Shown piece after piece: positions 34,351 through 61,224 of a stretch of 64,000 nt of DNA; the first letter of the stretch is position 1, and the number at the start of each line of letters is the position of its first letter. The position numbers and the translations under genes were made by a program. Origin of the DNA: a virus; the IMG/VR virus record IMGVR_UViG_3300035698_027665, positions 35,354-99,353 of that record; one strand, given 5' to 3'. Under the pieces are notes generated by a model, which worked only from the letters and a program-made list of their open reading frames with translations, was not told where the DNA came from and did no database searches.

Positions 34351-34704
34351 TCAATCGTCATCATCGTCTTCCATGTCCCAACTTTTGGACATTCTATCCT
34401 TTTTATCTTTTTTAGATAAAGAATCTTCGTTTTTTGGCAACATTTTTGGGACTCTTTCCCAATACCCCCAATTGCTCGAATTTTCACTGCTTTGAAAGAC
34501 CATACCTTTTTTGTGATATTTAGATAATATTTCTTCCACTCTTTGTTCAGAAAGAGATGTTTCTTTTGCTAATTGAGAAATGCTACGCCATTTCCATTTT
34601 TTATTACGGGCCAACGCTATAAAGAGTTTTTGTTCTTCATCACCTTTTTTTGTGCCTACTGGATAAACGTCTGTCCACTTTGACGGGGTGTTTTTTTTAC
34701 TCAT
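34351..34704 (-). CDS. Winged-HTH-like protein
   Basis: WRSISQLAKETSLSEQRVEEIL. Confidence 0.6.
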   Translation of the reverse strand: MSKKNTPSKWTDVYPVGTKKGDEEQKLFIALARNKKWKWRSISQLAKETSLSEQRVEEILSKYHKKGMVFQSSENSSNWGYWERVPKMLPKNEDSLSKKDKKDRMSKSWDMEDDDDD

Positions 34705-34802
34705 AATTTGATTCCCTTACAAAAATACTAAATAATCATGCTATTATATAATAGCACTGTAGTTTTATTGTACGTTAAAAAGTTTAGAAAGAAAAGTGAA
34801 AA

Positions 34803-35240
34803 ATGGCAAAATACAAACACATAAAGTTAAATCGTTTTGAAAAATTAGCTGCTAATAAAGAAAAATTAGCAAAAGCTCTTTTTGGAGAAGGGGTGTACTT
34901 ATACAGAAACAACGCTGGTGGTGATCTTAAATTGCCAAAGCCTAATTTGGAAGGCACAACGTTCGTTCCAAAAGGTGGAACGTTTAAAGGCGATAGTTAT
35001 TTTATGAGCATGGTGAAAAATAATGAGCTTAGGCTAGTGGAAGTTTTAGAAAAACCAAAGGAAATAAAAATGGAAGAAAAATTAATTTTAGACCAACCAG
35101 ATATTGTTACCACAGAGGGAACTGTTGAACATGTGTTAACAGATGAAGAAAAGAAAAAGCTAGAGGAAAACGAAGAAGAAGGACGTGAAACCCTCATTAC
35201 AGAAGACCCAATGGATGGCATTCAAATTCTTACCGACTAA
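34803..35240 (+). CDS. Hypothetical protein
   Basis: ORF track. Confidence 0.6.
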   Translation: MAKYKHIKLNRFEKLAANKEKLAKALFGEGVYLYRNNAGGDLKLPKPNLEGTTFVPKGGTFKGDSYFMSMVKNNELRLVEVLEKPKEIKMEEKLILDQPDIVTTEGTVEHVLTDEEKKKLEENEEEGRETLITEDPMDGIQILTD

Positions 35241-35264
35241 TTTGCTTTAAAAACCGATTCAAAG

Positions 35265-35273
35265 TGATATAAT
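35265..35273 (+). promoter_or_regulatory. Extended -10 promoter TGaTATAAT
   Basis: Upstream of 35323 gene. Confidence 0.5.
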
Positions 35274-35322
35274 GAAGGCAGCTTTTTAAGACTGGCTTGT
35301 TATATCATTGGAGTTTAATTAA

Positions 35323-36201
35323 ATGTCAAATGATGCTTTTGATGGAAAAGATTTTCTGTATGCGGTTTTCAAAAATGATGTTTTTGTCGGATTAGCCGAA
35401 AATAAAATTTCTGATTTAGTTGCACTTATCGACAATAGAAATGCTGCTTTAAAAGAAGTGACTTTATATAAAGTTGCTTCTTTTAAAGAGTTATCAGACG
35501 TTATGGAGAATAAGAAAAAAAAGAACGCACCTGCTGCACCTGCGTTGGAATCAGAATTAAACCGCATTAGTGATGTCTTTTCTAAACTGCTTGGCAGCAT
35601 GTCGATTGGAAATTTTAGCAATTCTAGAATTAAACAATATGGAAAAAGCGGGTATACAACAAAAAAGGGTAAAAAAATGAATGCTGCATTTGAAAACTAT
35701 TATGATCCTGACGATTTAGTTTGCCCTTATTCCTTTACTGGTTGGAAAGCGGTAAGTAAGACAAAAGGCATAAAAGCCAAACCAATGGGGCAGATAATTA
35801 TTGATAAAAAAATAATGGAAATGTTGAAGCTGCAAACATTAGAAGGGGATCAGGCTTTAAAAGACAATTCTATGGTTTGTTTGGGAGTTGATTCGGAACC
35901 TTGGCAGCAAGACGTTTCTAATTTATTTAAAAAATACAATGTGGTTAATGTAGATCAAGATGGATGGTTGATTTGTGAACCTAAAACCGAAAATAAATCA
36001 GAAGCTTTGAGAATTACAGAAGAAATGTGTGACGACAAGCACAAACTCACCATCTATGCTAATTGGGGAACGAAATTGGAAAATGGTAAATTTTCACAAA
36101 AGGGAAAAGTTGGTGATTATTTTTTACGTAATACAGAAGACAAAAGAGATACTTATATAGTTGAAAAAGAAGTTTACGAAAGAACGTATTCGGACATTTA
36201 A
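35323..36201 (+). CDS. Hypothetical protein with C-terminal PGDYG-like domain
   Basis: GKVGDYFL...YIVEKEVYERTY. Confidence 0.55.
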   Translation: MSNDAFDGKDFLYAVFKNDVFVGLAENKISDLVALIDNRNAALKEVTLYKVASFKELSDVMENKKKKNAPAAPALESELNRISDVFSKLLGSMSIGNFSNSRIKQYGKSGYTTKKGKKMNAAFENYYDPDDLVCPYSFTGWKAVSKTKGIKAKPMGQIIIDKKIMEMLKLQTLEGDQALKDNSMVCLGVDSEPWQQDVSNLFKKYNVVNVDQDGWLICEPKTENKSEALRITEEMCDDKHKLTIYANWGTKLENGKFSQKGKVGDYFLRNTEDKRDTYIVEKEVYERTYSDI

Positions 36202-36428
36202 CAATCCCCATATGGTTCGTCTTTTTCATAGGGTCCAGAAAAACGTTTTATATTTTTTTTATATTTTTTGGCAAGAAGTTTCCAACGCCAATCTGTTAAA
36301 TCTATTCCATAAAAAGAGTTTTTGAAAAATTTTTGTTCTTTCCAATTGTGTCCGCATGAATTGCATGAGCATATATTAGAATAATGCATGCTCGTCAAAC
36401 ACGACAAGCACATTGGGCATAAAATCAT
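36198..36428 (-). CDS. Small Zn-ribbon protein
   Basis: MILCPMC...CNSCGHNW. Confidence 0.45.
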   Translation of the reverse strand: MILCPMCLSCLTSMHYSNICSCNSCGHNWKEQKFFKNSFYGIDLTDWRWKLLAKKYKKNIKRFSGPYEKDEPYGDC

Positions 36429-36473
36429 ATTTATATTTATGTCCAACAAAAAGAGTTTTAATGTCAACCAAGC

Positions 36474-36501
36474 TTTACAACAATCAAGTTCCTAGTATAA
36501 T
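36474..36501 (+). promoter_or_regulatory. sigma70-like early promoter TTTACA-N16-TATAAT driving pncA operon
   Basis: Motifs read directly. Confidence 0.65.
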
Positions 36502-36550
36502 GCTGATGTTGACCAAATGATGTTTTATTTGTAATTTTAAGGGGATCAAA

Positions 36551-37447
36551 ATGTTAGATGTTAGATTGCTTATCATTGATCCACAAGGATCATTCTGCAA
36601 CGACGTGCCACAAGACCAACAGCAATCGCTTCACGACGGCGAGCTTTGCGTTCCCGGTGCTTTAGACGATATGAACAGACTTGCAAAAATGGTTGATCGT
36701 ATTGGACATAAGATCAAAGACATTACTGTAACTATGGATTCACACCCGTTAGGCGGACTGCATATTGCACATGGATGTTTCTTTAAAAACATTAATACAG
36801 GCGATAGACCATCGCCATTTACCATTATGACCTTGGACAAATCTGGTTCCGAGCCAAAAATTATAGGGACTATTGGTAGCGATACTGCTGAATATGTTAC
36901 TGCTCATCCCTCTTTTAGAGTTTGGACTTTAGAATATCTTGATAATTTGGAAACAAGTGGCCGATACCCACACTGCATTTGGCCTGAACACTGCATCATA
37001 GGAACGCCGGGGCATTTAATTGTCCCTGAATTAAGAAGTGCTTTGCACAATTGGGGGCAATTAAATAATGGTTTCGTGAATGTTGTTACCAAAGGTTCTA
37101 ATTTTAGGACTGAACACTTTTCTGCTGTTAGAGCAGAAGTGCCTGTTCCAAACGACCCAACAACACAGTTAAATACTGATGTCATTGAAACATTTTTAGA
37201 TGCTGATCTTATTGGCCTTTCAGGAGAAGCTAGATCACATTGTTTGGCAAATACTGTACGAGACATCGCTAATGAATTTGTAAGCGGCGGTCAATTTGGC
37301 ACCAATGATGAATTCATAAAAAAGTGTGTTCTTTTAACAGATGCTTCTTCAGATGTTCCTACATTTGAAAAATTAGGGAATGACTTTGTAGATGAAATGA
37401 CTTCTCGTGGAATGAAAACGGCTACTACAACCGACTGGCTTTCTTAA
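36551..37447 (+). CDS. pncA: Nicotinamidase/pyrazinamidase (isochorismatase family)
   Basis: IIDPQ.SF, L.VPGA, DSH, WPEHC, KG, GEARSHC. Confidence 0.88.
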   Translation: MLDVRLLIIDPQGSFCNDVPQDQQQSLHDGELCVPGALDDMNRLAKMVDRIGHKIKDITVTMDSHPLGGLHIAHGCFFKNINTGDRPSPFTIMTLDKSGSEPKIIGTIGSDTAEYVTAHPSFRVWTLEYLDNLETSGRYPHCIWPEHCIIGTPGHLIVPELRSALHNWGQLNNGFVNVVTKGSNFRTEHFSAVRAEVPVPNDPTTQLNTDVIETFLDADLIGLSGEARSHCLANTVRDIANEFVSGGQFGTNDEFIKKCVLLTDASSDVPTFEKLGNDFVDEMTSRGMKTATTTDWLS

Positions 37448-37460
37448 AAGGAGATTAAAA

Positions 37461-38213
37461 ATGCCTGTTTTTAATGAAAATAATAATTCTAAATCTTTAG
37501 ATAAATACAATAATCAAAAGTTTACATATTCTGCCGAGAAAATAGACTTGTTAGGTGCCTCTGAATATACATTGGTTACAATTGTAGCTGATCGCTCTGG
37601 CAGCACGTCAGGATTTGATAAAGACATGGAAAGAACTGTAAAAGAAATTGTAAGGGCTTGCAGTGACAGTCCTAGAGCAGAAAATCTTTTAATTAGATTT
37701 GTTTCTTTTTCAAATCAAACATATGAGGTTCATGGATTTGAACAATTGGCAGGAATCGACTTGAATAGATATGATGGCACTTTGTCGCCAAAAGGTTCTA
37801 CAGCACTTTATGATGCAACTATTAATGGCGTGGAAAACCTTGCCGATTTTGGCTCTAATTTGATTAAAAATGATTATGAGGCGAATGGAATAGTTTTTGT
37901 GATAACCGATGGTGGTGAAAACGCTTCTACTTATAGTATTAACGATGTGAAAAAAGCATTCGCTAGTGCTATAAAAAGCGAAAGCTTGGAAAGCATTACT
38001 ACAATTTTAATTGGAGTTAATGAAGCATCTAATGACCAATCTATTCAAGCTTTTGCTAAAGATGTAAATTTTACGAAATTTATTGGCATGCCAAATGTAG
38101 ACAAAAAGTCATTAGCTATATTGGCACAATTCGTTAGTCAAAGTATTTCAAGTACGTCACAATCTTTAGGTTCTGGAAGTGCTTCGCAATCTATTCAGCC
38201 TCCTACATTTTAA
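37461..38213 (+). CDS. vWA domain protein (TerY-like)
   Basis: MIDAS DRSGS, T(ALYDA), ITDG. Confidence 0.85.
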   Translation: MPVFNENNNSKSLDKYNNQKFTYSAEKIDLLGASEYTLVTIVADRSGSTSGFDKDMERTVKEIVRACSDSPRAENLLIRFVSFSNQTYEVHGFEQLAGIDLNRYDGTLSPKGSTALYDATINGVENLADFGSNLIKNDYEANGIVFVITDGGENASTYSINDVKKAFASAIKSESLESITTILIGVNEASNDQSIQAFAKDVNFTKFIGMPNVDKKSLAILAQFVSQSISSTSQSLGSGSASQSIQPPTF

Positions 38214-38237
38214 AACTATCCCCTTTTAACAAATTTA

Positions 38238-38275
38238 TTAAAAAACCCATAAGAAATTTCTTATGGGTTTTTTAA
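38238..38275. terminator. Perfect 38-bp palindrome between vWA and pncB
   Basis: ttaaaaaacccataagaaa|tttcttatgggttttttaa. Confidence 0.8.
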
Positions 38276-38285
38276 AAGGGAAAAA

Positions 38286-39452
38286 ATGAATATTCCATCT
38301 ATTTTAGACAACGATTTATATAAATTCACTCAACAACAAGCGGTTCTTTCTCTTTATCCTTTTGAAAATGTTGAATACAACTTCATCAACAGAAGGATGA
38401 CGGATAAATTTACAGATGAATGTGTAGATGCCATTAAAGCAGATATTGCGTCAATGTCACAATTGAAGCTGACGGAAGAAGAAAAAAAATGGTTGCCAAA
38501 TCACATTTTTACTCCTGCGTATAAAGAATTTCTTTCCGCTTACAGGTACAATCCCAATGAAATAATTGTCGACAATGAAGGCGGCAATCTATCTATAAAA
38601 GTAGTAGGTACTTGGATACGCACCATTCTGTGGGAAGTCCCTTTAATGTTTATAGTTAGTGAAAATTGGTACAAATACATAGACGTGAATTGGGATATGA
38701 TTGGACAAGGCTATAAAATAAGAAATAAAAACAATAGACTAAGCGAAGCTAATTGTTTATATGGAGATTTTGGGACACGTCGTAGACGTAATTTTGAAAC
38801 CCAAGATTTAATTGTGGCAGAATCCAAATCGTATAAAGATTCTGGTTTCGTGGGAACTAGCAATGTTTACTTGGCTAAAAAGCATAACGTTAATTTTTTA
38901 GGAACCCAAGCACATGAGTGGTTTATGGCACATTCTGTTTTATCTGGGATGAGACACGCTAATCGCAATGCGTTAGACGCATGGGCAAAGGTTTACCGTG
39001 GAAATTTAGGCATTGCATTAACAGATACTTTTGGGTCGCAACCGTTTTGGGATGACTTTGATCTTTATCTGGCGAAATTGTTTGATGGAGTCAGGCAAGA
39101 TTCAGGCAATCCTTTTGATTTTGCAGATGATGCTATAAAACATTATAAATCATTAAACATTGATCCTGCCACAAAAACTATTGTTTTTAGTGACTCGCTA
39201 AATGTCGACACTGCGATTAGCCTTAACAATCATTGTGCAAAAAGAGGAATAAAATGTTCTTTTGGAATAGGAACTCATTTAACCAATGATTTTAACAATT
39301 CTAAATCTTTAAATATTGTTGTCAAAATGACAAAAATAAACAATGTTCCTGTTGTAAAATTGAGTGATGATCCTTCGAAAGCAACAGGAGATGTAGAAGC
39401 AATTGCAGTGGCCAATTGGGTGTTTTATAACAAACCTTTATTTGGGAATTAA
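38286..39452 (+). CDS. pncB: Nicotinate phosphoribosyltransferase
   Basis: DNDLYK, DFGTRRR, GTSN, GTQAHEW, RQDSG, FSDSL, FGIGT, KLSD. Confidence 0.95.
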   Translation: MNIPSILDNDLYKFTQQQAVLSLYPFENVEYNFINRRMTDKFTDECVDAIKADIASMSQLKLTEEEKKWLPNHIFTPAYKEFLSAYRYNPNEIIVDNEGGNLSIKVVGTWIRTILWEVPLMFIVSENWYKYIDVNWDMIGQGYKIRNKNNRLSEANCLYGDFGTRRRRNFETQDLIVAESKSYKDSGFVGTSNVYLAKKHNVNFLGTQAHEWFMAHSVLSGMRHANRNALDAWAKVYRGNLGIALTDTFGSQPFWDDFDLYLAKLFDGVRQDSGNPFDFADDAIKHYKSLNIDPATKTIVFSDSLNVDTAISLNNHCAKRGIKCSFGIGTHLTNDFNNSKSLNIVVKMTKINNVPVVKLSDDPSKATGDVEAIAVANWVFYNKPLFGN

Positions 39453-39456
39453 TATT

Positions 39457-41223
39457 ATGGAAGAAATGAAAATAGTTTTAGGACAAATTAATACTACGCC
39501 TAGAGATTTTGAAGGCAACATGAAGCAAATTACAGATTGCATCGAAGAATCTCCAGACGATACGGATTTAATTGTCTTTCCAGAGGCTTCTATCCCCGGA
39601 TATCTTTGTCAAGACATGTTGTATGATTTAGATTTCATTAATCAAAATTTAAATTGCTTGTCTCGCTTGGTTGCAAAATCAACTTCTTGTAAAGCCACAA
39701 TTGTTGTGGGATATTATGATAAGAATACCAAGCACACTGGAAAGCCATTTAAAAACATGGCTGCTATAATTAAAGAAGGCAAAATAATTGCTCAATATCA
39801 AAAACAATTATTGCCTTTTTACGATGTGTTTGATGAAGGCAGATATTTCGAAGCTGGTAGTGATCTTTGTGTAGTACCCATAAAAGGTGAAAATTGGGGC
39901 ATAGCAATTTGTGAAGACATTTGGAATGATAAAAATTCTGATGACTATTACTACAAAAACAATCCTATTAAAAGATATGCAGAATTAGGCATAAAAAACA
40001 TTATTAGTATCAACAGTTCGCCTTATGTGAGAGACAAGCCTGAAAAAAGATATAAAACAATTATGAATTCTTGTGAAAAAAATGAATTCGATATATTTGT
40101 TTATGTTAATCAAATTGGTGGTCAAGACGAATTGGTTTTTGATGGTAATAGTTTTGTAATTAGTATGCAAGACGAGTACGTAGACAAAGCAGAACTAAAA
40201 ATAGGTGGATATTTAGTAGAATTAAAAGAAAGGTTGATGCAAACAAATCCCGACAAAAATACAGAAACCTATCATTCATATTTCTATTATGATGAAAACA
40301 TAATGTATAATCTTTTAGTTCTTTCTCTAAAAGATTACATTGTGAAAAACGGATTTAAAAAGGTCGTATTTGGCAGTTCGGGGGGCATAGACAGTGCTGT
40401 TGTCGCAGCAATAGCTTGTGATGCTATAGGTGCTGACAATGTGTATGCAATCATGATGCCTAGCGTAAACAGTAGCGAAGGATCAGTTAAGGATGCTAAA
40501 AAGCTGCATGAAAATCTAGGATGCCATGAATTGTCAATACCAATAAATCATCAACAAATGTTGGAGTCTATAAGTAATACTAATGAAAAACTAGATTTTC
40601 CAGAACAAAATCCTGTTGCAATAGAAAATCTGCAAGCGAGACTTCGAGGGATGATCGTTATGCACTATTCCAATAGCTATAATTTACTCCCGCTCACTAC
40701 AGGTAACAAAAGTGAATTGAGTGTTGGGTACTGTACTTTGTATGGGGATATGTGTGGTGGACGGGCAGTTATATGTGACCTTTACAAGACGGAAGTTTAT
40801 AGTATTGCTAGGTATATCAATACTATGAAAAAATGTATTCCTGCAAATATTATAAATAAAGAACCGAGTGCAGAACTGTCCCCTGATCAAAAAGACAAAG
40901 ATTCTTTACCGCCTTATTCTGTCTTGGACCCATTATTAGAAGGATATATTGAACATTATGCGACAACTTGGACAGAGTATAAAGCATATGTTGAAAAATC
41001 AAAAAAACGCAAAGGATATACAGAAGATGCAGACATGGAAACGGTCACGCCAGAAGTTTTTGCAAACATAGTTAAAAAAATAGACATTTCTGAATTCAAG
41101 CGTAGGCAAGCGACACCGGGTACAAAAGTACATGAAGTTGCTTTTGGAATTGGACGAAGGTTGCCTATTACTAAAGGCACAAGAAATTCTAAAGAATTAT
41201 TTAAGGAAAATGAAAATGCATAG
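39457..41223 (+). CDS. nadE: Glutamine-dependent NAD+ synthetase
   Basis: Nitrilase triad (FPE, K, ICEDIW); SGGIDS, ENLQARLR, GNKSE..VGY.TLYGD, PSAEL, EFKRRQ. Confidence 0.95.
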   Translation: MEEMKIVLGQINTTPRDFEGNMKQITDCIEESPDDTDLIVFPEASIPGYLCQDMLYDLDFINQNLNCLSRLVAKSTSCKATIVVGYYDKNTKHTGKPFKNMAAIIKEGKIIAQYQKQLLPFYDVFDEGRYFEAGSDLCVVPIKGENWGIAICEDIWNDKNSDDYYYKNNPIKRYAELGIKNIISINSSPYVRDKPEKRYKTIMNSCEKNEFDIFVYVNQIGGQDELVFDGNSFVISMQDEYVDKAELKIGGYLVELKERLMQTNPDKNTETYHSYFYYDENIMYNLLVLSLKDYIVKNGFKKVVFGSSGGIDSAVVAAIACDAIGADNVYAIMMPSVNSSEGSVKDAKKLHENLGCHELSIPINHQQMLESISNTNEKLDFPEQNPVAIENLQARLRGMIVMHYSNSYNLLPLTTGNKSELSVGYCTLYGDMCGGRAVICDLYKTEVYSIARYINTMKKCIPANIINKEPSAELSPDQKDKDSLPPYSVLDPLLEGYIEHYATTWTEYKAYVEKSKKRKGYTEDADMETVTPEVFANIVKKIDISEFKRRQATPGTKVHEVAFGIGRRLPITKGTRNSKELFKENENA

Positions 41224-42037
41224 TGATGTTGTTTTTATAACGGGTTCTCAACATAAAATTTGTCAAGATTATGCGAGAGCTAATCGGAACATTGACAACC
41301 CTTATGTCATAATTTCAGATGGATGCTCGTCAGCACCAAATACAGATTTTGGTTCTAGATTGTTAGTTAATTCTGCTGATAGTGTTTTAAGTTTAGATAA
41401 TTCTAACGCAGAATCAGTTTTGGAAACTATTGCAATTAAATCTTTTTTATATACTAAAATTTTGGAACTTCATCCAGATTCTCTTTGTGCCACATTGATT
41501 TATTTAAAAATAGAAGGCAATGCTTATAAATCAGTAATGTGCGGGGATGGCGTAATCGCTGGAAAAAGACATAATGGGAGCTTTTTTTTGAAAGAATATG
41601 CTTTTGATTCAAATGCTCCATATTATTTACGATACTCCGAGACAGAGAGTATGAAAAAAGATTTTTCCGAAAAATGTGGGTTGGATATGACTGTTACCAC
41701 ATGGGACATAGACGACAACAACATGGAAACAACAATAAAGAAAACACAATTTGACTTAGATCATCCTTATCAAATAGATGTTTTTCCAATAGAGGAATAT
41801 GAATTTGCTGCCATTTTCAGCGATGGGTTGTCTAGTTTTCGTAAATGGGATTCCGCAGAAACATATAAACAACAAATTCCAATAGATGTGCCTAATGTGT
41901 TTATGCCGTTATTGTCTTTTAAAAGCTGGTCAGGTGACTTTGTACACAGACGTGTGAATAGAGCGTTAAAAGAGTTGAAAAACGAAGGCAGTATGCATTT
42001 AGATGATTTGTCGATTGGTGTTATCAAAAAGGATTAA
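41216..42037 (+). CDS. PP2C-type phosphatase (TerY-P triad type)
   Basis: H..CQD, SDGCSSA, GDG, SDGL, DDLSI. Confidence 0.85.
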   Translation: MHSDVVFITGSQHKICQDYARANRNIDNPYVIISDGCSSAPNTDFGSRLLVNSADSVLSLDNSNAESVLETIAIKSFLYTKILELHPDSLCATLIYLKIEGNAYKSVMCGDGVIAGKRHNGSFFLKEYAFDSNAPYYLRYSETESMKKDFSEKCGLDMTVTTWDIDDNNMETTIKKTQFDLDHPYQIDVFPIEEYEFAAIFSDGLSSFRKWDSAETYKQQIPIDVPNVFMPLLSFKSWSGDFVHRRVNRALKELKNEGSMHLDDLSIGVIKKD

Positions 42038-42041
42038 TAAT

Positions 42042-43745
42042 ATGAAGGTTAAAGAACAAGGCGTAGGAGTTGTTCAATTAAATCCTCAAAGAGATTTTGT
42101 AACAAAAGGCGGCGAAAAAAGCATTTACCGTTTAGGGAATAAGACTTATGCAATATATCATGATAGAAAAGATGTAATACCAGCAGGAAAAGTAGCCGAA
42201 TTATCTGTTTTAACAGATGAACATGTTATTATTCCTGAACATTCACTTTTAGATTCTAAAGATAGGATAATCGGATACAGCATGCCTTTTGTCGATAACG
42301 CTATCCCATTGTGTAAGCTTTTCACTAAGACATATAGACAAAATAATAATATCTCTCAAAAACAAATTATAAATTTAGTAAAAAAACTGCAACTTCTTGT
42401 TTCTTATGTTCATAGCAAAAAAATATTAATTGTTGATTTGAACGAACTTAATTTTTTAATTAAAGATTTTAAGAACGTTTATGCCATTGACACAAACAGT
42501 TATCAAACTCCAAGTTTTCCTGCAACTGCAATAATGGAACAAATAAAAGATCGCCACAATAAAACTTTTTCACAAGAAACTGATTGGTTTTCTTGGGGGA
42601 TTATTTCTTTTCAAATGATAATAGGAATACATCCATACAAAGGGAATCATCCAGAATTCGAAGGGACGCCTGTTGAAAAACTAAATGCACGGATGTTGAA
42701 AAATGTTTCTATTTTAAATAAAAAAGTAAGTACGCCCGGCTCTGCTTATCCTTTAGACAACATTCCTAAAACTCTTAGAAAATGGTATGAAGCTGTTTTT
42801 GACAAAGGAATGAGATTATCACCACCTATTAATTATGAAAACGACATAATTGTCATAACTCCAATTAAAACAATTATCAATAATGGATCAAGGCTTGTTA
42901 TAGACGAATTGTTTTCTTTTAATGATGAAGTGTTAAATGTTTTGTTTAGTTGCGGCAAGGCCATAGTCAAAACTAATAAAAACGTTTATATTAATGGACT
43001 AAAGTACGATCTACCCAATTCCAAGTTGTGTTTAGGCTCAACTCCGACAAAAGGCATACCTGTAGCTGCTTGGATAGAAAATGGTATGGTTGAACTATAC
43101 GATGTACTAAATGCCACTCATGTGCCATGTAGCATGAGTGGGAGTAGCGTTTTCACAGTTGAAAATAGAATTTATGTGCAAAGCAATAACAGCATTGTAG
43201 AAATGAAATTTTTCGAAATGCCAAATAAAATAGCAGCAGCAACTAAAGTTGTGGGCAATGTATTGGACCTACCAAACGCCACACATGTCTTTGATGGTTG
43301 CGTATTGCAGAATCTCATGGGGAGATGGTCTGCTTCCCTGTTTCCAGAAAGTGAAGCGGGTTATCAGTTGTTCTTAGATGACTTGTCGTCTTATACAAAA
43401 ATATTTAATGCTAAATATGAAAATAAGGTTTTAGTGGTGACTGGCATCGATTCTAAAGGAAAATACGACAGACTTGTCTTTAGAATTGATTCATCATATA
43501 AAAAATATGATTGTCGAAAAATAGAAGATGTTGGCCCAACAGATATCAATTTCACAGTCGGCGAACAAGGGGTTTGTGTTTTGATAAACGAAGATGGGAA
43601 ACTAGAAATATTTCGCAATAAAATAGGCGAAATTGTTAGCGAAGTGCCAGATTCTGTTATTGATAAAGATATGAAGCTTTTTCACAATGGAGCGAATATA
43701 TTGTTTGCTAAAAACGAAAAGATTTTCAATATTAAAATGAAATGA
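42042..43745 (+). CDS. Ser/Thr protein kinase (TerY-P triad type) with beta-rich C-terminal region
   Basis: GGE..IY, VDLNELNFL, IDTNSY, TDWFS, G.HPYKG. Confidence 0.8.
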   Translation: MKVKEQGVGVVQLNPQRDFVTKGGEKSIYRLGNKTYAIYHDRKDVIPAGKVAELSVLTDEHVIIPEHSLLDSKDRIIGYSMPFVDNAIPLCKLFTKTYRQNNNISQKQIINLVKKLQLLVSYVHSKKILIVDLNELNFLIKDFKNVYAIDTNSYQTPSFPATAIMEQIKDRHNKTFSQETDWFSWGIISFQMIIGIHPYKGNHPEFEGTPVEKLNARMLKNVSILNKKVSTPGSAYPLDNIPKTLRKWYEAVFDKGMRLSPPINYENDIIVITPIKTIINNGSRLVIDELFSFNDEVLNVLFSCGKAIVKTNKNVYINGLKYDLPNSKLCLGSTPTKGIPVAAWIENGMVELYDVLNATHVPCSMSGSSVFTVENRIYVQSNNSIVEMKFFEMPNKIAAATKVVGNVLDLPNATHVFDGCVLQNLMGRWSASLFPESEAGYQLFLDDLSSYTKIFNAKYENKVLVVTGIDSKGKYDRLVFRIDSSYKKYDCRKIEDVGPTDINFTVGEQGVCVLINEDGKLEIFRNKIGEIVSEVPDSVIDKDMKLFHNGANILFAKNEKIFNIKMK

Positions 43746-43747
43746 GT

Positions 43748-44374
43748 TCACTGTTGACGGGCAAAATGTTGGCCAATTTCTTTTGGATCAGCCGTTGGTT
43801 GCCCTTTGCGAGTAGATTTTTTATTTTTCTTCCCGAATAGTTTTCTAGCTTTTTTTGAAGGCGGGGTTCTTGTATTGAAGACCAAAGTTCTATTATCAGG
43901 GGCAGAAGGTTCAAATGGGGATGCCCAAAAAGTATCTAAATCCGATTCGTTTTTTTTAATATATTTTTTAATTTTGTCGATGTGTTCTTGCAAGCTTTGC
44001 TTTACAAAAGGATGGAAATCCAACTCTTTCCAGTTATCTAAATCCACCCATTTGCTGTTTGTGTGTTCTTTACTTAACTTGGCTTTAAAAGGCTTGTCTA
44101 TAATACAAAGAAAAGAAGTCCATCTTCCACCGTCTTCAATTATTTTATCAAATACTTTTCCATGATTGTATCCACATTCCTCTTTAGTCTCTCTTTTTGC
44201 CCCTTCCAAAGCGGTTTCGCCACTTTTCAAATGTCCTCCCGGTGTAGTCCATTTTCCTGAATGTGAATTAGGCTCATATTGAATTGCTAAAAATTGCTTA
44301 CCATCAGTTAGAAACAATCCTGCACTTTTTTTTATATCTTTTTCAGTTGATTCTAACCAAAGTTTGAAACTCAT
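43748..44374 (-). CDS. Nudix hydrolase with capsid-targeting-like N-terminus
   Basis: Nudix box GGHLKSGETALEGAKRETKEECG; MSFKLWLES. Confidence 0.88.
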   Translation of the reverse strand: MSFKLWLESTEKDIKKSAGLFLTDGKQFLAIQYEPNSHSGKWTTPGGHLKSGETALEGAKRETKEECGYNHGKVFDKIIEDGGRWTSFLCIIDKPFKAKLSKEHTNSKWVDLDNWKELDFHPFVKQSLQEHIDKIKKYIKKNESDLDTFWASPFEPSAPDNRTLVFNTRTPPSKKARKLFGKKNKKSTRKGQPTADPKEIGQHFARQQ

Positions 44375-44883
44375 CTTTTCGGTCCTCTTTTCATCAATGC
44401 AGGTTTCAATTTTTCAAGATGTTTATCTGCCGTATGTTTTAACTGATGCATTATATTTCTCACTTCTTTAGTGATGTCAGCAGCAGAAGAACCAGAACAT
44501 CTATTATTCGATTGAATGCTTACAGTTCTTTTGTCTTTATTGTAAAATCCTTTAGAAATCACAAAGCATTCATTTTCTTTATTGAAAGAAACTACGCAAA
44601 CCCATTCCCCATCATCCCAATTTCTAGTAGAAATCAATATTCTAATAGGGAAATCTTCAAATACGTGTTTAATGTGATATTGATCTTGTTTTAAAGCCGC
44701 ACTGACATAACCTAAACTTATTTTAGCAAAAGCCTCTAAAACTTCTTCTTTTCTACTTCTGAAATTGATTTCAACGCTATATCTGCTGGTATTTACAGCT
44801 TCTTCAATAGTAGTATTTTGATCAAAATAATATACTATTTCATTTATTTGGGGAGTGTACAACCATTTTTTAAAACTTGCCAT
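44371..44883 (-). CDS. Hypothetical protein with MASFKKWL N-terminus
   Basis: TATATA motif 5 nt upstream. Confidence 0.65.
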   Translation of the reverse strand: MASFKKWLYTPQINEIVYYFDQNTTIEEAVNTSRYSVEINFRSRKEEVLEAFAKISLGYVSAALKQDQYHIKHVFEDFPIRILISTRNWDDGEWVCVVSFNKENECFVISKGFYNKDKRTVSIQSNNRCSGSSAADITKEVRNIMHQLKHTADKHLEKLKPALMKRGPKR

Positions 44884-44956
44884 ATTATTATATACTATTT
44901 GTCACTCCATAACGTTTTTATCATTTATATTTATTTTAAAAAATACTTTTATCTAT

Positions 44957-46648
44957 TTATATACTAAATTTCCAACGTTTTTTCCCACAATCCCAAATAC
45001 GTGCCAATCCATTTTGTAAAGCCCATTCTCTTTCAGTTATGTTTTCAGGACATCCAGTTGCTGATTTTTGCTGTGATTGTTTTGAAATTCTTTTTTGCGG
45101 GTTGCCGTATTTGACATACGAATAATCTGGTGGTAAATCTTTTTCTAACTTGAATCCTAACATTTTATATAAATCACCTGTAGACCATCTGTTATCGCTC
45201 CAAGAAATGATGTTATCAACATTTTCTTTTTGCAACCATGCAATACATCGCTTCCACAATTTGGATGCACCGCCGATAATTTGCGTGTTTTGTTTAAAAC
45301 AAAAACGATCTAGTACTAGTTTTTTAGAATCTCTATGGTGCCTTCCAATGGACATAATGCTTACTAATTCTTTTTCGTATTCTAATCCAAAAGATTTAAT
45401 TATTCCCCTCGAAGTGCCTTGTAGATGATTCAGTTCGTAAAAATCTCTAGTTTGTTCTAGTTTTGGCTCTACCAAATTACATTTTCTTGCATATATTTTT
45501 TTTTCAAATTGCCCTAATTTAGATTTTAATACAGAAAACATTTGCTCTTTTTTGTATTTGTATTCATCTTCAAATATTGTTATTAAAAATATGTTTTGTT
45601 CTTTACATTTTTTATATTTTTCAAAATGATAAGAACGCTCTCTAGGTTCAGGGGATTTTTCATTATGCCAGTATAGTCCACAATACTCTATTGCTATTTG
45701 TTTTTCTTTATCGTATAAATCTATTTCTTTACCATTAAGAACAGTGACATTGGATTTAAAGTTAAAACCTAATTTATTTAGGTTTTCCTTCAACGACAAC
45801 TCTGTTTTCCCCAAATTATGATACAAATGTCCATATTTGTCCAATCTGGTTTGCATTGATTTAGTTTTCACTAAATCAGTTTTCATAGGATGCCCGCCAT
45901 ACTTCTCAACACATGTTTTATTATATTTTTTTAAATACTCTGATGTCTTTGCATAGTTATCAACTCCGTATCTCTCAATACAAGTTTGTTTTTGTTTTTC
46001 ATTTATTTTTTCATTTTGCAACGGGTGTTTAACACCATATTTTTGTTCTAAAGAACTTTGTTGTTTTTCAACATATTTCTTGTTTTTCATAACGTTTTTT
46101 TGTTTATATTTGTCTACATTTGTTTTTTCTGTTTTGCTTTTCCAGTCTTTAGTTTGAGAGAAATATTCTTTGCCATATTTTTTGATGTTTGTTTCTTTAA
46201 TTTTTTCTTTGATGTCATCAGATTGCGAAAAATGTTCAACCCCGTACCTTTCCAGTGCAGACTCTTGTCTTTTTAATTTCGCTTCTTCTGTAGATAAAAA
46301 ACTGTTTGCACCATATTTCTTGATGTTTGTTTTTTTAATCTTGTTTTTAATTACATCTAATTTAGCAGGATTGGTTACGCCATATTTTTTAACGTTAGAC
46401 TCTTTAGCTTTATCTAAAAATTCATTTTTAAAACAATTCACACCATGTTTTTCAATAATGGTTTCGCTTCTTTTTTTAACACTGCATTCTTTTGATCCAC
46501 AACTATGCTTTTCTTCTTTTATGCAATGCCTTTTTGCTCTTTCAAATTCTTTTGAGCAATAATCGCATTTAGAAAATATTTTATGGGTTTGCTTAATATC
46601 AGCAAACGTACAATTATATTTTTCTTCATTTTTTTGATATAATATCAT
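44957..46648 (-). CDS. Hef-like homing endonuclease: KYG repeats, PD-(D/E)XK/Vsr-like domain, GNAT-like C-terminus
   Basis: About 8 K..T...KYG repeats; EIDLY...AIEYCGLYWH, IFEDE; IYARKC, NHLQG, GGASKL, SDNRW, IWDCG. Confidence 0.8.
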   Translation of the reverse strand: MILYQKNEEKYNCTFADIKQTHKIFSKCDYCSKEFERAKRHCIKEEKHSCGSKECSVKKRSETIIEKHGVNCFKNEFLDKAKESNVKKYGVTNPAKLDVIKNKIKKTNIKKYGANSFLSTEEAKLKRQESALERYGVEHFSQSDDIKEKIKETNIKKYGKEYFSQTKDWKSKTEKTNVDKYKQKNVMKNKKYVEKQQSSLEQKYGVKHPLQNEKINEKQKQTCIERYGVDNYAKTSEYLKKYNKTCVEKYGGHPMKTDLVKTKSMQTRLDKYGHLYHNLGKTELSLKENLNKLGFNFKSNVTVLNGKEIDLYDKEKQIAIEYCGLYWHNEKSPEPRERSYHFEKYKKCKEQNIFLITIFEDEYKYKKEQMFSVLKSKLGQFEKKIYARKCNLVEPKLEQTRDFYELNHLQGTSRGIIKSFGLEYEKELVSIMSIGRHHRDSKKLVLDRFCFKQNTQIIGGASKLWKRCIAWLQKENVDNIISWSDNRWSTGDLYKMLGFKLEKDLPPDYSYVKYGNPQKRISKQSQQKSATGCPENITEREWALQNGLARIWDCGKKRWKFSI

Positions 46649-48703: not shown

Positions 48704-48731
48704 TTTACATCTTCAAAATTTAGCTTATAAT
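48704..48731 (+). promoter_or_regulatory. sigma70-like promoter TTTACA-N16-TATAAT
   Basis: Upstream of membrane module. Confidence 0.65.
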
Positions 48732-61082: not shown

Positions 61083-61224
61083 AATGTAATTATAATAACA
61101 TTGTTATTTGATTTCAATAAATTATTTTAATTTTTTTTAATTGAAATATCAATGTATCAAATTGGAGTTTACAAGCGGAGAATGAGTGCTATAATGGCTT
61201 TCATCGATCAACAGGATACAATCC

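Follow-up and report, generated by a model that had tools for sequence, protein, structure and literature searches.

What do genes for rebuilding nicotinamide adenine dinucleotide (NAD+) do in the midst of a protein phosphorylation system in a phage? The question is raised by six co-oriented open reading frames (ORFs) on the + strand between positions 36551 and 43745 of a 64,000-nucleotide stretch of viral DNA (the window), which forms the right-hand 64 kb of the 99,353-bp IMG/VR virus record IMGVR_UViG_3300035698_027665. With a completeness of ~20% according to CheckV, this record is a fragment of a huge-phage genome, ~80% of which is unsampled. An initial annotation, made from the letters of the window, read the six genes as pncA, a vWA gene, pncB, a glutamine-dependent nadE, a PP2C gene and a Ser/Thr kinase gene behind a promoter of the form TTTACA-N16-TATAAT; the genes, their order and strand, and the promoter are all confirmed by our coordinates, family assignments and promoter ranking (Table 1). 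The reading towards which we lean, without great confidence, is that of an early-expressed block in which a conserved cassette, made up of the nicotinamidase and the vWA-PP2C-kinase triad, took up pncB and nadE; the phage would itself supply three steps of NAD+ synthesis, and the triad would reversibly tune the salvage of nicotinamide.

A conserved four-gene cassette

We located homologues of the six proteins in 43 huge-phage loci that contain a nicotinamidase homologue, on contigs of up to 619 kb; 34 of these loci are distinct, and the counts below refer to them. The nicotinamidase is accompanied by the vWA gene in 30 of the 34 loci, by the kinase gene in 29 and by the PP2C gene in ~28, always in the order pncA-vWA-PP2C-kinase, and the proteins share 32-58% identity with those of the window. 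The four genes are directly adjacent in loci L006, L011, L025, L026, L030, L038, L039, and L043; the intergene gaps of other cassettes contain many unrelated ORFs. pncB was found in three loci and nadE in five. Because vWA, PP2C, and kinase genes are near-constant and pncB and nadE are this rare, the core of the locus is, by its gene content, a nicotinamidase-vWA-PP2C-kinase cassette, and pncB-nadE is a sporadic, lineage-specific insertion between genes two and three. The initial annotation had coupled the triad to the NAD genes as a whole; what stands of this is the co-conservation of the nicotinamidase and the triad, and what falls is that of pncB and nadE. The same synteny, seen in 34 distinct loci at this level of divergence and also in bacterial phyla, contradicts the view that two functionally uncoupled gene sets came to be interleaved through chance events, the phage genome being a mosaic; in spite of a hairpin between the vWA gene and pncB, and of signs in the salt-lake contigs that 36246 and 39469 are mosaic junctions, all of which would suit such an origin, we regard it as very improbable.

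At least one further NAD gene lies within 10 kb of the cassette (the distance used for all neighbourhood counts) in 15 of the 34 loci. NadD-like genes occur in eight loci; for example, L004 has a NadD that scores above the cut-off (TIGR00482, 126 bits) between its PP2C and kinase genes. Homologues of NrtR, a repressor of NAD genes that combines Nudix and winged-helix domains and is freed from DNA by ADP-ribose (PMC2330246), flank the cassette in nine loci. Cellular genomes present a similar picture: a 9.4-Mb Myxococcota chromosome and its relatives have the order pncA-like-vWA-kinase-NrtR, and in Desulfatibacillum alkenivorans a pncA-like gene adjoins NrtR; the nicotinamidase family was found, in single copy, in 19 of 201 genomes sampled from the phylum of the Myxococcota. 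The NadE of the window is of the PRK13981 subtype, whereas the same cassette position is taken by NadE of the PRK02628 subtype (~680-710 aa) in L004:12466-14595 and L007:12986-14992; by subtype, then, NadE at this position is a case of non-orthologous recruitment or replacement. Judging by these neighbourhoods, NAD genes have gathered at the cassette repeatedly and independently (NadD, NrtR, and two non-orthologous types of NadE). Since NAD genes recur at the cassette in both phages and cellular genomes, the comparison supports the view that the nicotinamidase is real, works in NAD salvage, and is functionally tied to the triad.

Proteins encoded by the block

The product of ORF 1 matched neither the Pfam model PF00857 nor the NCBIfam nicotinamidase models, even at E = 10, nor any PHROG, and PDB searches with the single sequences of ORF 1 and of ORF 2 (the vWA protein) were uninformative. 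ORF 1 has more than 1,500 homologues, each ~290 aa long; a few of them are named nicotinamidase by JGI, and only a few have a precomputed PF00857 match. In the PDB, the sole matches of a profile of 30 homologues are nicotinamidases (yeast Pnc1, 4.6e-8), and nicotinamidases fill ranks 1-11 of a Foldseek search with the AlphaFold2 (AF2) model of the protein (pLDDT 95; 2wta, 1.9e-13, TM-score on target 0.78). Comparison of 30 family members revealed an invariant catalytic triad (D10/K181/C231), which aligns to the catalytic positions of Pnc1 and PncA; the metal-site residues D63, H65, H71, and H147, as well as F15, are also invariant, and the WPxHCxxGT motif is conserved (W144-P145-x-H147-C148-x-x-G151-T152). 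A metal site of Asp and His residues, including the His of WPxHC, separates nicotinamidases from other isochorismatase-fold hydrolases. By alignment and predicted fold, ORF 1 is a long, divergent PncA-type nicotinamidase.

The vWA protein has a complete metal ion-dependent adhesion site (MIDAS; DxSxS...T...D), in which four residues (D44, S48, T114, and D150) never vary and S46 is nearly invariant. Its C-terminal tail is conserved as FVSxSISSQSQALGTGGPSQSxxF, the last residue being Phe. The family profile matches vWA domains of the PDB, those of integrins (I domains) among them, and phrog_7371 (function unknown) is the sole PHROG match of the protein (1.3e-12); Pfam and NCBIfam gave no match. 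The identities that the initial annotation had given to ORFs 1 and 2, although unmatched by any Pfam or NCBIfam model, are thus borne out by profiles and conserved motifs in both cases and, for pncA, by the fold.

The invariance of the full nicotinamidase active site (metal ligands and WPxHCxxGT) and the ranking of nicotinamidases as top fold matches speak against another explanation, by which the cassette would serve signalling or exclusion in the manner of TerY-P. The isochorismatase-fold protein would then be an effector or sensor with a target other than free nicotinamide (for instance a signal molecule, or an amide in a protein or peptide), and pncB-nadE would have landed in an insertion hot spot. 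In its favour are the many unrelated ORFs in the cassette gaps, the 19 loci that have no other recognisable NAD gene, the large family-specific insertion in ORF 1, and the failure of ORF 1 against PF00857; TerY-P-like triads do serve as anti-phage systems (PMC11090510). Four kinds of NAD gene were nevertheless recruited repeatedly, at varied positions and from varied subfamilies, and PADLOC gave no match, and we consider this explanation unlikely.

PncB is above threshold in both NCBIfam models that it matches (402.8 bits for TIGR01514, with a cut-off of 269.55, and 436.9 for NF003704, with a cut-off of 379). NadE scores 550 bits against NF010588 (cut-off 479), and both its CN_hydrolase (PF00795) and NAD_synthase (PF02540) domains match. 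NadD, which the initial annotation had found to be absent from the window, is absent from the whole 99-kb record too; neither did this record yield an Nmnat, PnuC, or PRPS-like gene, an NAD-dependent DNA ligase, or an NrtR winged-helix domain. Because NadD is near-universal in bacteria, it is plausible that the host supplies this step. The record has a single cytidylyltransferase-like ORF (163 aa; G000:C1:25747-26238, or L001:1405-1896, outside the window), with HYLH in place of HxGH; it was rejected as a NadD candidate, its closest relative being RfaE domain II, below the cut-off, although such an activity is not excluded biochemically. In one related phage, the NadD-like gene between PP2C and kinase (L050:1471-2097, the locus also listed as L007/L008) has two in-frame TAG codons, both at positions where L051, whose NadD is intact, has Trp; either TGG>TAG changes have made this gene a pseudogene, or that phage decodes its genes in an unusual way.

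In the PP2C family, the metal-binding Asp motifs D63-G64, D139-G140, D231-G232, and D291-D292 are invariant among 24 homologues. The AF2 model of the kinase (pLDDT 89) shows an N-terminal kinase domain and an all-beta region at residues ~290-580, and the top Foldseek matches are the LRRK2 kinase-WD40 structure and beta-propellers. The catalytic Asp (D145) and the Mg-binding Asn and Asp (N150 and D163) are invariant; 24 of the 29 family members have the Lys of the beta3 "AxK" motif, which is replaced by Ala in the phage of the window (within 42003-42200) and by Asn in L003.

Table 1. Features of the block and its borders (positions in the window).
Feature	Position	Strand	Evidence and remarks
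Sigma-70-like promoter, TTTACA-N16-TATAAT	36474-36501	+	Top-ranked promoter-like site in 34500-45500 (11 kb); 11/12 matches
Divergent PncA-type nicotinamidase (ORF 1), 298 aa, ~100-aa insertion	36551-37447	+	Family profile, AF2 fold, conserved active site
vWA protein (ORF 2), intact MIDAS, conserved Ser/Gln-rich C-terminal tail	37461-38213	+	Family alignment, PDB profile matches, phrog_7371
Hairpin, terminator- or attenuator-like	38238-38275	.	Perfect 17-bp palindrome, A/T runs on both flanks; between vWA stop and pncB start
PncB, nicotinate phosphoribosyltransferase, 388 aa	38286-39452	+	TIGR01514, NF003704, Pfam NAPRTase and NAPRTase_N
NadE, glutamine-dependent NAD+ synthase	39457-41223	+	NF010588; ORF from TTG 39403, probable start ATG 39457 (read from sequence)
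PP2C-type Ser/Thr phosphatase	41210-42037	+	PP2C_2, 6e-12; ORF from 41132, probable start ATG 41210 (sequence and family N-terminus)
Ser/Thr protein kinase with C-terminal beta-propeller (predicted)	42042-43745	+	Pkinase, 5.5e-8; ORF from 42003, probable start ATG 42042
Nudix hydrolase, convergent neighbour, intact Nudix box	43748-44374	-	NUDIX, 2.4e-13; converges on the kinase gene; unit membership uncertain

Proposed role and known systems

In the mechanism that we propose, the PncA-like enzyme of the phage would convert nicotinamide to nicotinate (step 1); PncB would make nicotinate mononucleotide (NaMN) from nicotinate, phosphoribosyl pyrophosphate (PRPP), and ATP (step 2); a NadD, from the host or from the unsampled part of the genome, would turn NaMN into nicotinate adenine dinucleotide (NaAD; step 3); and the phage NadE would form NAD+ from NaAD, ATP, and glutamine (step 4). 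The initial annotation had recognised PncA, PncB, and NadE as enzymes of this deamidating route, and their predicted places at steps 1, 2, and 4 agree with it. The kinase, with the propeller as its input domain, and the PP2C phosphatase would reversibly phosphorylate the tail of the vWA protein or the nicotinamidase. The Ser-rich tail would be the obvious phospho-acceptor; a phospho- or acid-dependent clamp, formed by the MIDAS, would bind or release the nicotinamidase and in this way tune how much nicotinamide enters salvage. The whole would serve to maintain NAD+ during infection, possibly against NAD-depleting defences. The recurrence of the four-gene unit in many giant phages and some bacteria suggests that NAD recycling at the cassette is under phosphorylation control.

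Several points weigh against this. The switch, the enzyme activities, and the expression of the block are predictions from sequence. ORF 1 could act on a different substrate, because it fails PF00857 and has the ~100-aa insertion, and the kinase of the window may be atypical or weakened, and the switch impaired in this phage, because its beta3 Lys is replaced by Ala. The lack of NadD in the 99-kb record is weak evidence of its absence, because ~80% of the genome is unsampled. Among the relatives, 19 of the 34 loci show no further recognisable NAD gene in the 10-kb neighbourhood; related cassettes contain inserted ORFs of which the ten largest gave no Pfam match and are not recognisably NAD-related; and the Myxococcota versions of the cassette have no PP2C. 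In the window, the terminator-like hairpin would split pncA-vWA from pncB.

Depletion of NAD+ is a major anti-phage strategy of bacteria, and three routes by which phages rebuild NAD+ are experimentally proven: NARP1 (Adps+Namat) and NARP2 (Nampt+Nmnat; bioRxiv 10.1101/2024.02.11.579819), and PnuC+NadR, to which the name NARP3 has already been given (PMC13464706). The block could be a further pathway of this kind, dedicated to counter-defence, that recycles the nicotinamide released by the NADases of Thoeris, DSR, and SIR2-HerA, the triad sensing or gating the response; this we regard as possible, and as a tentative reading. Rebuilding of phage NAD+ by NARP1, NARP2, and NARP3 does beat NADase defences, nicotinamide is the direct product of NADases and PncA its entry enzyme, the promoter of the block looks early, and NrtR, present with the cassette in nine of the 34 phage loci, responds to the second product of NADases, ADP-ribose. 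However, the cassette also lies beside NrtR in bacterial chromosomes, where housekeeping salvage is the simpler role; the route costs three ATP and PRPP and depends on a host NadD; and the published reading for jumbo phages is a general supply of NAD to NAD-consuming phage enzymes (PMC11662467). Like the NARPs, the block would probably lead to NAD+ being rebuilt from breakdown or precursor molecules during infection; it differs from them in its predicted intermediates, which are nicotinate, NaMN, and NaAD, in a phosphoribosyltransferase that is a NAPRTase according to NCBIfam, and in that the pairs that define the NARPs are not found in the record, which covers ~20% of the genome.

The cassette could, finally, be a sensor of NAD breakdown and not only a regulated enzyme: the MIDAS of the vWA protein and the propeller-bearing kinase would read out the turnover of nicotinamide at the nicotinamidase, or the occupancy of this enzyme; a phage or a cell would in this way detect the activation of NADase-type immunity and switch its programme by Ser/Thr phosphorylation. 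We consider this quite unlikely; if true, phage decision-making would have its first metabolite-to-kinase link to NAD depletion.

The deamidating route, which the initial annotation had put forward as a new phage pathway, is not new: "NAD-jumbo phages" with pncB-nadD-nadE Preiss-Handler clusters, and with pncA, have been reported computationally (Microbiome 2024, PMC11662467), and annotations of pncB and nadE exist for jumbo phages in culture, e.g., Atu_ph07. The phage of the window resembles these phages, which are likewise huge and come from habitats that include salt water, in its clustered genes for deamidating NAD+ synthesis; it differs from them in that the window has no NadD and that a nicotinamidase-triad cassette forms the core, kinase and vWA being mentioned nowhere in PMC11662467. 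A second precedent is the NrtR-regulon salvage operon of Pseudomonas, nrtR-nadD<>pncA-pncB-nadE (Rodionov et al. 2008, PMC2330246). The order of pncA, pncB, and nadE is identical in the two, and NrtR and NadD adjoin the cassette in relatives of the phage; the phage copy differs in that the 99-kb record lacks both NrtR and NadD, that its PncA is long and divergent, and that a signalling triad is interleaved with the NAD genes.

The triad itself had been taken for a TerY-P triad, a system described by Anantharaman, Iyer and Aravind (2012), with the anti-phage TerY-P of Gao et al. (2020) as summarised in PMC11090510, and exemplified in E. coli by YegL-PphC-YegI (bioRxiv 10.1101/819920, 10.1101/303594). 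This comparison stands in so far as a vWA protein with a MIDAS, a PP2C phosphatase, and a eukaryote-like Ser/Thr kinase occur together, contiguous in many relatives and split by pncB-nadE in the window. It does not extend to the C-terminus of the kinase, which is a zinc ribbon in Ter-type and an OB fold in defence-type TerY-P (PMC11090510) and a predicted beta-propeller here, nor to the TerY-P models of PADLOC, which matched neither the vWA nor the PP2C protein (the kinase matched only PD-T4-6 and mad6, weakly). A further difference is the nicotinamidase as constant fourth partner, in a context of NAD genes rather than of tellurite resistance or restriction. The triad thus resembles TerY-P, yet by kinase tail and PADLOC it is not a member.

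A full-text literature search for vWA or PP2C together with nicotinamidase or isochorismatase retrieved no description of the four-gene cassette. The Preiss-Handler genes of the block are ordinary phage auxiliary metabolism, already published; the interesting part is the cassette, of a TerY-P kind and tied to NAD salvage. The deamidating route in giant phages has so far been known from annotation only. Its entry enzyme proves to be encoded in a fixed unit, together with a metal-binding adaptor, a phosphatase, and a sensor kinase; this unit recurs in numerous giant phages as well as in several lineages of bacteria, often with NrtR next to it. Should the nicotinamidase be under the control of the triad, this would constitute an unstudied post-translational layer of NAD homeostasis, and a TerY-P-like triad would have a concrete metabolic function.

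Layout and surroundings of the block

The exact TTTACA-N16-TATAAT motif occurs three times in the window (0.18 copies are expected), each time on the + strand; the two other copies are located at 48704-48731 and 61168-61195. The three look like a shared class of early promoters of this phage. The hairpin between the vWA gene and pncB could be a bidirectional terminator or an attenuator within the block, and forms the upstream border of the pncB-nadE insertion; no significant repeats flank this insertion.

The GC content is ~33% across the window, and the six-gene block shows no compositional break. When the block was compared by megablast with 50,697 phage records, there was no match; near-identical DNA was found in four salt-lake metagenome runs from the year 2017. 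In these four runs, word depth rises 10-fold over 36094-36387 and 39328-39621, and there are loose ends at 36246 and at 39469 (12 nt inside nadE), other abundant contigs matching only these short stretches. This pattern suggests that 36246 and 39469 are mosaic or recombination junctions that border NAD genes. All contigs obtained from the four runs were short, and they yielded no joints.

The Nudix gene downstream of the block is not NrtR-like and was not found beside the cassette in related loci. Just past the Nudix pair, on the - strand, a protein of 563 aa (44957-46648) matches DUF7487 (3e-40) and, weakly, GNAT. Upstream of the block, a 145-aa ORF on the + strand (34803-35240) without a family match has conserved counterparts (42-52% identity) in L002-L004, L007, and L054, the closest relatives, where they precede the cassette by 3-8 kb.

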